A DNA stretch of 64,000 bases, taken from NCBI RefSeq assembly GCF_003018255.1, contig NZ_CP027440.1. One strand, given 5' to 3'. This stretch comes from Escherichia coli. Lineage in GTDB: Bacteria; Pseudomonadota; Gammaproteobacteria; Enterobacterales; Enterobacteriaceae. Position 1 is the stretch's first letter, and each line of letters begins with the position of its first letter. Both the position numbers and the translations under genes were made by a program. This document shows, piece after piece, positions 3,376-56,882 of the stretch. Under the pieces are notes generated by a model. The model was given only the letters and a program-made list of their open reading frames with translations, made no database searches and was not told where the DNA came from.

Positions 3376-5025
3376 ATGGAAATCTTCTTCACCATACTGA
3401 TAATGACCCTCGTGGTCTCGCTGTCCGGGGTGGTCACTCGTGTCATGCCCTTTCAGATCCCGCTTCCGCTTATGCAAATCGCCATCGGTGCGCTACTGGC
3501 GTGGCCGACGTTTGGTTTGCATGTGGAGTTTGATCCTGAACTCTTTTTAGTCTTGTTTATCCCGCCGTTGCTGTTCGCTGATGGCTGGAAAACGCCGACC
3601 CGTGAATTTCTCGAACATGGTCGAGAGATTTTCGGCCTCGCGCTGGCGCTGGTGGTGGTCACCGTGGTCGGCATTGGCTTTCTTATTTACTGGGTGGTGC
3701 CGGGCATTCCGCTGATCCCCGCCTTTGCGCTGGCGGCGGTGCTTTCTCCGACCGATGCTGTGGCGCTCTCGGGGATTGTTGGCGAAGGGCGCATCCCGAA
3801 AAAAATCATGGGCATTTTGCAGGGCGAAGCGTTGATGAATGACGCCTCCGGTCTGGTGTCGTTGAAGTTTGCCGTGGCAGTGGCGATGGGGACGATGATC
3901 TTCACCGTCGGTGGTGCGACGGTCGAATTTATGAAAGTGGCCATTGGCGGTATTCTCGCCGGTTTTGTGGTGAGCTGGCTGTACGGTCGCTCGCTGCGAT
4001 TCCTCAGCCGCTGGGGCGGTGATGAACCCGCGACGCAGATCGTCCTGCTGTTCCTGCTGCCATTCGCTTCTTATCTGATTGCCGAACATATTGGCGTTTC
4101 CGGTATCCTCGCTGCGGTTGCCGCCGGGATGACCATCACCCGTTCCGGTGTGATGCGCCGTGCGCCGCTGGCAATGCGCCTGCGCGCAAACAGTACCTGG
4201 GCGATGCTGGAATTTGTCTTTAACGGCATGGTATTCCTGCTGTTAGGTCTGCAGCTGCCGGGTATTCTGGAGACGTCGCTGATGGCGGCAGAAATCGACC
4301 CTAACGTCGAAATCTGGATGCTGTTTACCGATATCATTCTGATTTATGCGGCGCTGATGCTGGTCCGTTTCGGCTGGCTGTGGACGATGAAAAAGTTCAG
4401 CAACCGCTTCCTGAAGAAGAAGCCGATGGAGTTTGGTTCGTGGACCACACGAGAAATCCTGATCGCGTCTTTCGCCGGGGTGCGTGGGGCGATCACTCTG
4501 GCTGGTGTGCTCTCAATCCCGCTGCTCTTGCCGGATGGTAACGTCTTCCCGGCGCGCTATGAGCTGGTGTTCCTGGCGGCTGGTGTCATTCTCTTCTCGC
4601 TGTTTGTCGGCGTGGTGATGTTGCCTATTCTGCTACAACACATTGAAGTCGCGGACCATTCGCAACAATTGAAAGAGGAACGTATTGCGCGAGCGGCAAC
4701 GGCAGAAGTGGCGATTGTGGCGATCCAGAAAATGGAGGAGCGTCTGGCGGCGGATACCGAAGAGAATATCGATAACCAGCTGCTCACAGAGGTTAGTTCT
4801 CGCGTCATTGGTAACCTGCGTCGTCGCGCCGATGGACGTAACGACGTTGAAAGTTCCGTGCAGGAAGAGAACCTTGAGCGTCGCTTCCGTCTGGCGGCAT
4901 TGCGTTCTGAACGTGCTGAACTGTACCACCTGCGCGCCACGCGGGAGATCAGTAACGAAACGCTGCAAAAATTACTGCACGATCTCGATTTGCTTGAAGC
5001 GTTGCTGATTGAAGAGAACCAATAA
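3376..5025 (+). CDS. yjcE: Putative Na+/H+ exchanger (CPA1 family)
   Basis: 549-aa ORF with N-terminal multi-TM domain and charged C-terminal tail. Confidence 0.85.
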   Translation: MEIFFTILIMTLVVSLSGVVTRVMPFQIPLPLMQIAIGALLAWPTFGLHVEFDPELFLVLFIPPLLFADGWKTPTREFLEHGREIFGLALALVVVTVVGIGFLIYWVVPGIPLIPAFALAAVLSPTDAVALSGIVGEGRIPKKIMGILQGEALMNDASGLVSLKFAVAVAMGTMIFTVGGATVEFMKVAIGGILAGFVVSWLYGRSLRFLSRWGGDEPATQIVLLFLLPFASYLIAEHIGVSGILAAVAAGMTITRSGVMRRAPLAMRLRANSTWAMLEFVFNGMVFLLLGLQLPGILETSLMAAEIDPNVEIWMLFTDIILIYAALMLVRFGWLWTMKKFSNRFLKKKPMEFGSWTTREILIASFAGVRGAITLAGVLSIPLLLPDGNVFPARYELVFLAAGVILFSLFVGVVMLPILLQHIEVADHSQQLKEERIARAATAEVAIVAIQKMEERLAADTEENIDNQLLTEVSSRVIGNLRRRADGRNDVESSVQEENLERRFRLAALRSERAELYHLRATREISNETLQKLLHDLDLLEALLIEENQ

Positions 5026-51427: not shown

Positions 51428-51690
51428 ATAATCAGTTACATCAATGAGTCCTAAACGAAATCCATGTGTGAAGTTGATCACAAATTTAAACGCTGGTAGG
51501 GTAAAAAGGTCATTAACTGCCCAATTCAGGCGTCAACTGGTTTGATTGTACATTCCTTAACCGGAGAGTGTAAGCAAACCCGCTACGCTTGTTACAGAGA
51601 TTGCATCCTGCAATTCCCGCTCCCCTTTTGCGGCCGTCGCGCTGATTTTTCTGGCGTTTGCGGAAATGGGCCAACTCTGCGAGGAAAGCT

Positions 51691-53193
51691 ATGCTGAAAA
51701 GGAAAAAAGTAAAACCAATTACCCTTCGTGATGTCACCATTATTGATGACGGTAAACTGCGTAAAGCCATTACCGCAGCATCACTGGGTAATGCAATGGA
51801 ATGGTTTGATTTTGGTGTTTATGGTTTTGTTGCTTACGCATTAGGTAAAGTTTTTTTCCCGGGGGCTGACCCCAGCGTGCAGATGGTTGCTGCACTTGCC
51901 ACTTTCTCCGTTCCCTTTCTGATTCGACCGCTTGGTGGACTCTTCTTTGGTATGTTGGGCGATAAATATGGTCGCCAGAAGATCCTCGCTATCACTATTG
52001 TGATTATGTCGATCAGTACGTTCTGTATTGGCTTAATACCGTCCTACGACACGATTGGTATTTGGGCACCGATTCTGCTGTTGATCTGTAAGATGGCACA
52101 AGGTTTCTCGGTCGGCGGTGAATATACCGGGGCGTCGATATTTGTTGCGGAATACTCCCCTGACCGTAAACGTGGCTTTATGGGCAGCTGGCTGGACTTC
52201 GGTTCTATTGCCGGGTTTGTGCTGGGTGCGGGCGTGGTGGTGTTAATTTCGACCATTGTCGGCGAAGCGAACTTCCTCGACTGGGGCTGGCGTATTCCGT
52301 TCTTTATTGCTCTGCCGTTAGGGATTATCGGGCTTTACCTGCGCCATGCGCTGGAAGAGACCCCGGCGTTCCAGCAGCATGTTGATAAACTGGAGCAGGG
52401 CGACCGCGAAGGTTTGCAGGATGGCCCGAAAGTCTCGTTTAAAGAGATTGCCACCAAACACTGGCGCAGCCTGTTGACATGTATTGGTCTGGTAATTGCC
52501 ACCAACGTGACTTACTACATGTTGCTGACCTATATGCCGAGTTATTTGTCGCATAACCTGCATTATTCCGAAGACCACGGGGTGCTGATTATTATCGCCA
52601 TTATGATCGGTATGCTGTTTGTCCAGCCGGTGATGGGCTTGCTGAGTGACCGTTTTGGCCGTCGTCCGTTTGTGCTACTTGGTAGTGTTGCACTGTTTGT
52701 GTTGGCGATCCCGGCGTTTATTCTGATTAACAGTAACGTCATCGGCCTGATTTTTGCCGGGTTACTGATGCTGGCGGTGATCCTTAACTGCTTTACGGGC
52801 GTTATGGCTTCTACCTTGCCAGCGATGTTTCCGACGCATATCCGTTACAGCGCGCTGGCGGCGGCATTTAATATTTCGGTGCTGGTTGCCGGTCTGACGC
52901 CAACACTGGCGGCCTGGCTGGTCGAAAGCTCGCAGAATCTGATGATGCCTGCCTATTACCTGATGGTAGTGGCGGTGGTTGGTTTAATCACCGGCGTAAC
53001 CATGAAAGAGACGGCAAATCGTCCGTTGAAAGGTGCGACACCGGCGGCGTCAGATATACAGGAAGCGAAGGAAATTCTCGTCGAGCATTACGATAATATC
53101 GAGCAGAAAATCGATGATATTGACCACGAGATTGCCGATTTGCAGGCGAAACGTACTCGCCTGGTGCAGCAACATCCGCGAATTGATGAATAA
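51691..53193 (+). CDS. proP: Proline/glycine-betaine:proton symporter (MFS, osmosensing)
   Basis: 500 codons from MLKRKKVKPITL; 12-TM MFS core and C-terminal coiled-coil. Confidence 0.92.
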   Translation: MLKRKKVKPITLRDVTIIDDGKLRKAITAASLGNAMEWFDFGVYGFVAYALGKVFFPGADPSVQMVAALATFSVPFLIRPLGGLFFGMLGDKYGRQKILAITIVIMSISTFCIGLIPSYDTIGIWAPILLLICKMAQGFSVGGEYTGASIFVAEYSPDRKRGFMGSWLDFGSIAGFVLGAGVVVLISTIVGEANFLDWGWRIPFFIALPLGIIGLYLRHALEETPAFQQHVDKLEQGDREGLQDGPKVSFKEIATKHWRSLLTCIGLVIATNVTYYMLLTYMPSYLSHNLHYSEDHGVLIIIAIMIGMLFVQPVMGLLSDRFGRRPFVLLGSVALFVLAIPAFILINSNVIGLIFAGLLMLAVILNCFTGVMASTLPAMFPTHIRYSALAAAFNISVLVAGLTPTLAAWLVESSQNLMMPAYYLMVVAVVGLITGVTMKETANRPLKGATPAASDIQEAKEILVEHYDNIEQKIDDIDHEIADLQAKRTRLVQQHPRIDE

Positions 53194-53243
53194 GCTGAAA
53201 CGGATGGCCTGATGTGACGCTGTCTTATCAGGCCAATTGAACT

Positions 53244-53260
53244 CTTAAGGTTCACTTAAT
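53244..53260 (+). promoter_or_regulatory. BasR/PmrA box upstream of pmrR
   Basis: CTTAAG-GTTCA-CTTAAT, ~45 bp upstream of the pmrR ATG. Confidence 0.6.
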
Positions 53261-53304
53261 CTCTGACGCGCATACTCTCCTCCAGGTTAACGGAGGAGAG
53301 TGCA

Positions 53305-53394
53305 ATGAAAAACCGTGTTTATGAAAGTTTAACTACCGTGTTCAGCGTGCTGGTGGTCAGCAGCTTTCTTTATATCTGGTTTGCCACGTTCTGA
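53305..53394 (+). CDS. pmrR: PmrR small membrane peptide (29 aa)
   Basis: ATG preceded by GGAGGAG RBS; encodes MKNRVYESLTTVFSVLVVSSFLYIWFATF. Below the ORF-track length cut-off; overlaps basS 3' end antisense. Confidence 0.7.
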   Translation: MKNRVYESLTTVFSVLVVSSFLYIWFATF

Positions 53395-54470
53395 TCTTTC
53401 TTCAGCCGTACCCAGGCCCGCGTGCCGGAAGTCTCTTGCCGGTTTTGCAGGAAAAACTGCCCGTGATGCAACTGTGTAATGCGGCTGACAATACTTAACC
53501 CCAGACCAATCCCGCCATAACGGCTGTCCATACGTACAAACGCTTTACTCAACTCCCCGCATTTACTCTCATCAATACCCGGTCCTTCATCTTCAACGGC
53601 CATGACCGCTCCGCCATCTTCTTGCAGCTTAATCATAATGTTGCTGCCTTGCGGGCTGTAACGATGGGCGTTTTCTACCAGGTTTCGCAATAACATCCGC
53701 AGCAGGGTTGCATCACCCTGAACGGTGATGTCGGCGGCGCTCTCTGGCAATAGCAGGTTTTGCTGTCGCTGGTCGAGCATGGTACTGAGTTCGTCATACG
53801 AGGGGAGAATGACATCTTCCAGCAGTTTTACATGTTGATAATTACCGGAAGAAAATGACTGTCCGGCACGCGCCAGTTGCAGCAGCTGGGAGACACTCTC
53901 CATCATCTGATCAAGTCGAGCCACTAACGGTGCTACATCAATGTGATGCGTTTTCGCCAGCAGTTCCAGATGCAAACGCACCCCCGCCAGTGGCGTTCGC
54001 AGTTCGTGCGCGACGTCAGCGGTAAACAACCTTTCGTTATCCAGCGTGCTGGTCAGGCGACTGACCAGATCGTTCAACGCCGAAACCACCGCTTCGATTT
54101 CGAGGGTGGCGCTGTGAATGGCAATAGGCGTTAAGTTGTCGGCGGTGCGCGCTTCCAGCTCTTTTTGCAGCTCCGCCAGCGGCCGGGTGATGCGGCGTAC
54201 CGCCTGATAGCAGATAAATAGCGTCAGGCTGACCATAAAGACGCCGGGGACGATCAGGCTGGCGACCGCCTCGCGGATCTCACGCATGATGTGGCGATCG
54301 TTGTTGCGATTGTCGCGTAGCGCCTGCTCAAACAGCTGAATCTGCTCGGTACTTTCATGCCATAGCCAGAAGACGCTGATCAGCTCAAACACCAACAAAA
54401 TGGCCCCAATGGTCAATATCAGCCGTTGGCGCAGCGATATTGGTCGGCGCAGAAAACGCATCAGATTCAA
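53370..54470 (-). CDS. basS: Sensor histidine kinase BasS/PmrB
   Basis: ~363-aa ORF with H-box ADVAHELRTPL; exact start uncertain. Confidence 0.9.
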   Translation of the reverse strand: MNLMRFLRRPISLRQRLILTIGAILLVFELISVFWLWHESTEQIQLFEQALRDNRNNDRHIMREIREAVASLIVPGVFMVSLTLFICYQAVRRITRPLAELQKELEARTADNLTPIAIHSATLEIEAVVSALNDLVSRLTSTLDNERLFTADVAHELRTPLAGVRLHLELLAKTHHIDVAPLVARLDQMMESVSQLLQLARAGQSFSSGNYQHVKLLEDVILPSYDELSTMLDQRQQNLLLPESAADITVQGDATLLRMLLRNLVENAHRYSPQGSNIMIKLQEDGGAVMAVEDEGPGIDESKCGELSKAFVRMDSRYGGIGLGLSIVSRITQLHHGQFFLQNRQETSGTRAWVRLKKDQNVANQI

Positions 54471-56824: not shown

Positions 56825-56841
56825 AATTAAGCCAACCTTAA
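56825..56841 (-). promoter_or_regulatory. BasR/PmrA box upstream of eptA
   Basis: Minus-strand CTTAAG-GTTGG-CTTAAT, ~45-60 bp upstream of the eptA ATG. Confidence 0.6.
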
Positions 56842-56857
56842 GTTCTTAAGGTTGGCT
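56829..56857 (-). terminator. Hairpin downstream of adiC (overlaps the PmrA box)
   Basis: AGCCAACCTTAAG-TTCT-TAAGGTTGGCT inverted repeat with T-rich flank. Confidence 0.45.
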
Positions 56858-56882
56858 TTTATGTTTGCTTGATTAAGGGGAA

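Follow-up and report, generated by a model that had tools for sequence, protein, structure and literature searches.

Genes in this part of the window (the whole stretch of 64,000 nt of Escherichia coli DNA that was analyzed) are arranged in the order proP (51658-53193, plus strand), a short plus-strand ORF, basS (also known as pmrB; 53370-54470, minus strand), basR, eptA, and adiC, and the same order is found in E. coli K-12. The ORF is pmrR, and the short region in front of it contains a binding site of the response regulator BasR (PmrA), a putative -10 hexamer, and a perfect inverted repeat that covers the ribosome-binding site. The features of the locus are listed in Table 1.

Table 1. Features of the pmrR locus, in window coordinates unless stated otherwise
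Feature	Position	Strand	Comment
REP-like stem-loop, proP 3' UTR	53201-53239	+	-20 kcal/mol, z = -5.4; just after the proP stop
Rfam RF02052 'STnc630', full-length match	53236-53401	+	178.5 bits; gathering score 55
BasR/PmrA box CTTAAG-GTTCA-CTTAAT, CTTAAGGTTCACTTAAT	53244-53260	+	Exact; 44 nt to ATG
Putative -10 hexamer CATACT	53271-53276	+	Starts 10 nt after the box; conserved in the alignment
Perfect 10-bp inverted repeat, ACTCTCCTCC-N8-GGAGGAGAGT	53274-53301	both	Arms 53274-53283 and 53292-53301
Predicted BasR-dependent pmrR transcription start	53283-53285	+	3' end of the left hairpin arm or first loop bases
Shine-Dalgarno sequence GGAGGAG	53292-53298	+	6 nt before ATG
pmrR CDS	53305-53394	+	ATG 53305, TGA 53392-53394; 29 aa, MKNRVYESLTTVFSVLVVSSFLYIWFATF
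3' end of incoming (proP) RNA	53305-53306	+	Directly after the hairpin; Term-seq and TRS
Last 25 bp of basS (pmrB), including the stop codon	53370-53394	-	Overlaps the pmrR 3' end
pmrR 3' UTR, antisense to basS codons	53402-53494	+	Ends at the published 'primary' 3' terminus
Rho-dependent termination region, peak	53650-53665	+	Antisense to basS; converted from MG1655, approximate
Second exact BasR/PmrA box, CTTAAGGTTGGCTTAAT	56826-56842	-	Upstream of eptA-basRS
Klebsiella-type module loci L015, L017, L023, L009, L013, L014, L042, L011, and others	~4070-4240 of each locus	-	

The encoded peptide matches the NCBIfam equivalog model NF033224 ("LpxT activity modulator PmrR") over residues 1-29 of 29 with a score of 72.7 bits (cut-off 30, E = 1.5e-20). 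Its 90% cluster in UniProt includes PMRR_ECOLI, the window peptide being one of several named variants there, and a Pfam search gave nothing meaningful for this peptide. The promoter-to-start sequence of MG1655 printed in a Term-seq table (PMC7815308) is identical to that of the window, and in comparison with pmrR of E. coli K-12 we are dealing with the same gene, with a strain-level difference at most. Together with the functional PmrA box (PMC8129183), these matches confirm the name proposed for the ORF in an earlier note on this DNA. The same note called the ORF unannotated, which is true for the raw window but not for the public records: RefSeq uses the label "pmrR: LpxT activity modulator PmrR" in 5408 of 5426 complete E. 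coli genomes, as surveyed with a 221-nt query across the region and matches of at least 95% identity. The note also referred to PmrR as a peptide described in Salmonella; the identification stands, and the gene has been annotated and studied in E. coli as well. Thus, the ORF is the already known pmrR of E. coli, a small membrane peptide gene with published expression, localization, and genetics and with a PmrA box that has already been deleted, and the identification in itself, although correct, adds nothing new. Four of the 5410 E. coli matches are located on plasmid-labelled records; in one 18-kb record (NZ_CP083870.1), pmrR adjoins a gene whose sole annotation is 'ATP-binding protein'; possible explanations are a truncated pmrB and an assembly fragment.

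The charged residues of PmrR are confined to the N-terminus (K2, R4, and E7) and are followed by one hydrophobic span, and PmrR-6xHis has been found in the membrane fraction (PMC11429745). PmrR is a single-pass membrane peptide of ~29-30 residues, and its gene is convergent with the pmrB/basS 3' end, which it abuts or overlaps. The GGAGGAG sequence reported in the earlier note in front of the ATG codon of a 29-aa hydrophobic peptide is indeed present, and each of the 52 aligned sequences has a comparable purine-rich stretch at the corresponding position. The overlap of the ORF with the basS stop region was likewise borne out and comprises 25 bp. Across genera, however, the overlap between the pmrR and basS coding sequences varies from -8 to +57 nt, and thus the 25-bp overlap is not a conserved feature. 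The codon-position entropy in a group of 30-aa peptides from relatives is 1.05, 0.66, and 1.41 for positions 1, 2, and 3, respectively, which is a coding signature. Translation itself, one of the checks suggested in the note, has been observed, since Ribo-RET detected initiation at pmrR in E. coli in low Mg2+ (PMC11429745). Inside the pmrR coding sequence, 30 nt before the stop codon, we also observed a terminator-like stem, TGCTG-GTGGT-CAGCA, followed by GCTTTCTTTA (53348-53362, plus strand); the Rfam consensus of the region likewise shows this stem as a helix.

The box CTTAAG-N5-CTTAAT, placed by the earlier note about 45 bp upstream of the ORF, was found as an exact match 44 nt before the ATG codon. 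The motif CTTAAK-N5-CTTAAK occurs exactly twice in 64 kb, in the pmrR promoter and upstream of eptA, compared with a mean of 0.00 and a maximum of 0 in 100 dinucleotide-preserving shuffles. The eptA box had also been pointed out previously; the box is real, and its coordinates are corrected here from 56825-56841 to 56826-56842. The presence of a BasR box at both pmrR and eptA shows that the same regulator addresses both convergent transcription units. The eptA promoter (minus strand, 56826-56855) additionally contains a third CTTAAG at 56845-56850 beside the box of two half-sites. This third CTTAAG and the first half-site of the eptA box constitute an 11-bp inverted repeat, CCAACCTTAAG-AA-CTTAAGGTTGG, and a further CTTAAT is located at 56872-56877 (minus strand).

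Downstream of the pmrR box, a conserved hexamer begins 10-11 nt after the box in alignment A1, which comprises 52 distinct sequences from the box to the ATG codon. Its most conserved positions are A2 (49/52), A4 (51/52), C5 (47/52), and T6 (52/52), and in E. coli the hexamer CATACT is the putative -10 element of the BasR-dependent promoter. The transcription start was placed 7 nt after T6, the last base of the predicted -10 hexamer. In all 52 sequences, this predicted start is offset by -3 to +1 nt from the first loop base of the hairpin described below, and the leader would be 18-24 nt long. Evidence that pmrR expression depends on PmrA comes from published work. After adaptation of E. coli B to iron(III), expression of pmrR increases along with that of eptA, arnABC, ugd, and basR (PMC13405929); the lack of a transcript, which the note had named as evidence against its reading, was thus not observed. 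A single-copy pmrR promoter reporter gave no response to low Mg2+ (PMC11429745), a condition that activates BasRS only indirectly.

Published genetic data link pmrR to LpxT. In the PmrA-constitutive E. coli strain WD101, deletion of the PmrA box in the pmrR promoter resulted in polymyxin B sensitivity and deoxycholate resistance, and cells in which lpxT was deleted as well regained polymyxin B resistance; according to the authors (data not shown), ectopic pmrR complements the box deletion (PMC8129183). Thus, the support from E. coli for binding or inhibition of LpxT by PmrR is genetic and consists in the suppression of the box-deletion phenotype by the lpxT deletion. Direct binding of PmrR to LpxT is attributed to Salmonella work by Kato, Chen, Latifi, and Groisman (2012, Mol Cell 47:897), as cited in PMC8129183, PMC8004244, and PMC11429745. 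As described in these citations, the Salmonella enterica PmrR is also a PmrA-activated membrane peptide of ~30 residues; its gene runs convergently toward the pmrB 3' end, and the peptide inhibits LpxT. One NCBIfam equivalog model comprises both proteins, and, as far as these citations go, no functional difference was detected between them, the link to LpxT in E. coli coming from genetics. Deletion of pmrR also causes a growth defect in low Mg2+, which is complemented by wild-type pmrR but not by an ATG-to-TAA allele, and which is independent of lpxT (PMC11429745); therefore, LpxT may not be the sole target of PmrR. Like MgrB, MgtS, and PmrD of the PhoPQ/PmrAB network, PmrR is a short stress-induced protein that modulates a larger membrane or signalling protein (PMC11429745). 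Those proteins have other targets and no sequence relationship to PmrR, whereas PmrR is directly activated by BasR and targets an LPS-modifying enzyme.

According to the proposed mechanism, phosphorylated BasR would bind the direct repeat that substitutes for a -35 element (53244-53260) and would activate a promoter with the -10 hexamer CATACT. Our grounds for inferring BasR binding and this promoter geometry are the conservation of the layout and the published box-deletion genetics. The resulting mRNA of ~210 nt, extending from a predicted start near 53284 to a reported end near 53494, would expose GGAGGAG and encode the 29-residue single-pass inner-membrane peptide. PmrR would then inhibit LpxT, the enzyme by which the 1-position of lipid A receives its second phosphate, and with LpxT inhibited EptA could put phosphoethanolamine at this position. 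The expected outcome is a less negatively charged surface, increased polymyxin resistance, and loss of deoxycholate resistance.

To describe the distribution of this gene, we compared 80 basS loci, taking one genome per species; 79 of them had enough downstream sequence to be assessed, and no Salmonella locus was among the 80. Fifty-six of the 79 loci have a box (0-1 mismatches) that is located 40-46 nt before the start of an ORF that encodes a hydrophobic peptide of 28-33 aa, is convergent with basS, and has the C-terminal pattern W-x-x-[TS]-[FY]. The box, the -10-like hexamer, the ribosome-binding site, and the PmrR-like ORF occur together in these 56 loci and never apart, and neither an ORF without the box nor a box without the ORF was found among the 79 assessable loci. 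Loss of the box from relatives that retain the ORF, which the earlier note had named as evidence against its reading, was therefore not seen, as all 56 species loci with a PmrR-like ORF keep the box. The module is present in Escherichia, Citrobacter, Yokenella, Klebsiella, Raoultella, Kosakonia, Phytobacter, Pseudocitrobacter, Trabulsiella, Kluyvera, and Pluralibacter, as well as in several "Enterobacter" species and one Pantoea. Among the 79 loci, those of Pectobacterium, Rahnella, Rouxiella, Ewingella, and Chimaeribacter lack this module. Some Enterobacteriaceae with basS convergent with uvrB (L010, L019, L032, L033, L047, and L081) also have neither the box nor a PmrR-like ORF; the basS-uvrB gap is ~20-90 nt in five of them and ~205 nt in L032. 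The short-gap loci without the module suggest either a loss of pmrR or an ancestral state that lacked it.

Escherichia and Citrobacter amalonaticus have proP as the upstream neighbor of pmrR, and most other genera have uvrB; the neighbor is oriented toward pmrR in 51 of 55 cases. The eptA-basRS-pmrR cassette is thus observed in two contexts, beside proP (L001-L007 and L072) or beside uvrB (L008-L062), and in both pmrR stays with basS. The peptides encoded behind basS form one family, as follows from HMM ranking and from the coding-type entropy. When an HMM built only from 44 peptides of non-Escherichia type was used to rank 630 small ORFs of the window, the E. coli PmrR came out on top (E = 4.7e-7), with the runner-up at an E-value of 0.11. 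Of 10 representative peptides compared with the NF033224 model, 6 gave no match, among them those of the Klebsiella, Kosakonia, Kluyvera, Phytobacter, and Yokenella types, and the Klebsiella-type peptides are named "hypothetical" or "uncharacterised" in databases. For instance, in Klebsiella pneumoniae (L015) the region behind pmrB contains the box, the -10-like hexamer, the hairpin over the ribosome-binding site, and an ORF for a hydrophobic peptide of 30 aa, MQKINFREYLAVATALVIIVAFFHQWVLTF. Loci of this type are missed by the NCBI PmrR model and by Rfam STnc630 alike.

The inverted repeat between the promoter and the start codon connects two functional elements: its left arm coincides with the 3' part of the -10 hexamer and the discriminator, and its right arm with the ribosome-binding site. 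The hairpin has a folding energy of -19.9 kcal/mol on the plus strand and -20.3 kcal/mol on the minus strand (z about -4.1). The helix is paired in 88% of cells, as compared with 47-52% in slid controls, and one of its pairs is AU in 17 sequences, CG in 17, GC in 6, and GU in 6. The number of double-change cells is 38 against 12.5 in shuffles, and none of 500 shuffles reaches the observed value; since the sequences are related, this shuffle control overstates the significance, and more weight is due to the slid controls and to the occurrence of four pair types in different genera. In read-through RNA, the ribosome-binding site is ~91% paired, and the leader produced from pmrR's own promoter folds weakly (-2.4 kcal/mol in E. 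coli and about -5 on average). No U-tract follows the stem on either strand, and a scan for terminators did not return this hairpin; it was thus rejected as an intrinsic (Rho-independent) terminator.

Two published data sets place plus-strand RNA ends directly at this structure. In MG1655, where pmrR occupies 4332116-4332205, a Term-seq 3' end was mapped at 4332116 (window 53305; PMC7815308 supplement) and a TRS peak at 4332117 (window 53306; PMC10687069 supplement), i.e., 4-5 nt beyond the hairpin. The authors of the TRS study interpreted the latter as termination of the upstream gene inside the pmrR coding sequence (PMC10687069). The hairpin does form in plus-strand RNA in vivo, as evidenced by the Term-seq and TRS 3' ends just past the stem. 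As indicated by their mapped 3' end at 53305, upstream transcripts evidently pass through the REP-like stem-loop of the proP 3' UTR, and so this stem-loop lies on the transcripts that reach the pmrR hairpin, without being a part of pmrR.

These observations suggest an additional layer of the mechanism, in which the ribosome-binding site constitutes the 3' arm of a conserved hairpin and the 5' arm lies upstream of the predicted transcription start. With this arrangement, RNAs arriving from the upstream gene, proP or uvrB, would fold the hairpin, hide the ribosome-binding site, and end there, producing no PmrR. As the predicted start is at the loop, RNAs initiated by BasR would lack the 5' arm and would be translatable; probably only they are translated. 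Our preferred reading of the hairpin is that it may both mark the end of upstream transcripts and restrict PmrR translation to the BasR-initiated mRNA. The joint proposal that the hairpin is a promoter-selective translation gate and a 3'-end element, and that the same module accompanies PmrR homologs in Klebsiella pneumoniae and many other genera, is tentative, and we give it a little less than an even chance. For the overall explanation, that is, pmrR as a BasR-driven gene of an LpxT-inhibiting peptide with the hairpin layer as a predicted addition, we estimate a probability of about 0.93.

The geometry of the pmrR hairpin resembles that of a known system in insertion sequences. In IS10 and IS50, a transcript that arrives from outside includes upstream sequence that base-pairs with the ribosome-binding site of the transposase gene, and a transcript from the element's own promoter begins within the inverted repeat and remains translatable. 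This protection of IS10/Tn10 and IS50 from outside promoters was reportedly described by Davis, Simons, and Kleckner in Cell in 1985. By analogy, the pmrR hairpin may work in the same way. Unlike the insertion sequences, however, pmrR is a chromosomal regulon member, its hairpin also marks the 3' end of an upstream mRNA, and the effect on translation is a prediction.

Alternatively, the hairpin could act mainly on the minus strand, as a stabilizer or terminator at the 3' end of the eptA-basRS mRNA, with its overlap with the pmrR ribosome-binding site being a by-product. The minus-strand fold is equally stable, with equal mean energies across species, and the module travels with basS in both chromosomal contexts, on the proP or the uvrB side. 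A further argument for this role comes from plasmid-borne pmrB of BL21, which confers colistin resistance only with its 3' flank: the colistin MIC was 0.5 µg/mL with +86 nt, 4 µg/mL with +103 nt, and 16 µg/mL with +126 nt or more (PMC8004244). Projected on the window, the +86 end point falls into the hairpin loop (53283), the +103 end point (53266) lies just upstream of the -10 hexamer and the complete hairpin, and the +126 end point coincides exactly with the box (53244). Extension from +86 to +103 thus completes exactly this hairpin; but it also restores the -10 hexamer, and so the MIC result is confounded. Furthermore, although the +86 construct had 315-fold less pmrB mRNA than the +126 construct, the half-life of this mRNA was equal with and without the longer flank (PMC8004244). 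We therefore rejected the flank series as proof of basS mRNA stabilization, given the equal half-lives and the end points that also remove the -10 hexamer and the box; the series is compatible with a contribution of pmrR expression, of the hairpin, or of both, and was counted for neither. The absence of a U-tract on both strands also argues against a 3'-end role, and the Term-seq table contains no minus-strand basS 3' end, whereas the plus-strand end is documented twice. The asymmetry between G·U and A·C pairs points to the plus strand for the core helix (35 vs 8) and to the minus strand for the outermost pair (18), the energies being equal. On balance, we consider a predominantly minus-strand function unlikely, although it is the strongest competitor of the preferred reading, in which the hairpin acts on plus-strand RNA.

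Another possibility is that the main role of the locus is antisense control of basS, with convergent pmrR transcription lowering the amount of the sensor kinase, through collision at or pairing with the eptA-basRS mRNA 3' end, and the peptide being secondary. The pmrR-basS pair is already included in the ExcludonFinder list of convergent E. coli excludons (PMC12288877), and overlapping convergent transcripts are indeed documented in published data. The primary pmrR terminus mapped by TRS (MG1655 4332305, window ~53494) is ~125 nt inside basS (PMC10687069), and the pmrR 3' UTR contains a long-range stem (53402-53488, -33.6 kcal/mol, z = -2.5). Plus-strand transcription continues antisense into basS up to a Rho-dependent stop near 53657, which corresponds to position 4332468 (+), 'antisense basS', in a DirectRNA-seq comparison of bicyclomycin-treated and untreated samples (Rho score 8.58, p = 2.7e-37; PMC7815308 supplementary file 2). 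Since both units carry the same BasR box, the antisense transcription could act as a feedback brake. However, two observations argue against mutual exclusivity: pmrR and basR are co-induced (PMC13405929), and PmrA-dependent arnT induction was unchanged, still ~50-fold, without the pmrR promoter box (PMC8129183), with the reservation that the PmrA-constitutive strain may mask effects on the kinase. Moreover, pmrR complements the phenotype in trans (PMC8129183), the start-codon mutant fails to complement (PMC11429745), and the overlap of the coding sequences is unconserved. In the plasmid series, the pmrR promoter raised rather than lowered pmrB mRNA (PMC8004244). An antisense device as the main function is thus improbable. 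The earlier note had suggested that transcription of the ORF could interfere with basS; the overlapping transcription is confirmed by the published 3' ends, and functional interference, so far unsupported, is a possibility only.

The region is also covered by the Rfam family STnc630, described as 'Enterobacterial sRNA', whose consensus spans the PmrA box, the hairpin over the ribosome-binding site, with its helix drawn, the AUG codon, and the whole ORF. STnc630 is the same sequence and hairpin as pmrR filed as a non-coding sRNA; unlike this label, the pmrR region is a promoter and a small-protein mRNA, and RF02052 seems to be the mRNA of a small protein that was entered as an sRNA. Among 20 loci tested, the model reaches only Escherichia and Citrobacter. 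A non-coding small RNA with an incidental ORF, for which the full-length RF02052 match speaks, is effectively refuted by the promoter box, ribosome-binding site, AUG codon, and complete ORF within the Rfam consensus itself, by the reading frame, length, and W-x-x-[TS]-[FY] pattern kept across genera that have diverged past the reach of the Rfam model, by the coding pattern of codon positions, and by the published translation, tagged protein, and start-codon-dependent phenotypes (PMC11429745).

Two results of this analysis appear to be new: (i) the module of the box, the -10-like hexamer, the ribosome-binding site, and the ORF behind basS in 56 of 79 species loci, Klebsiella included, and (ii) the covarying hairpin that joins the -10 and discriminator region to the pmrR ribosome-binding site. 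If the proposed function of the hairpin is true, it provides a simple reason why the output of PmrR follows BasR activity alone despite transcription incoming from the neighboring gene. The conserved hairpin may also help to explain the puzzling dependence of plasmid-borne pmrB on its 3' flank. Finally, Klebsiella, Raoultella, Kosakonia, Kluyvera, Phytobacter, and several Enterobacter-like species have a peptide gene that is equivalent in position and architecture and is unrecognized as PmrR, which matters in Klebsiella because pmrB-linked colistin resistance is a clinical problem there.
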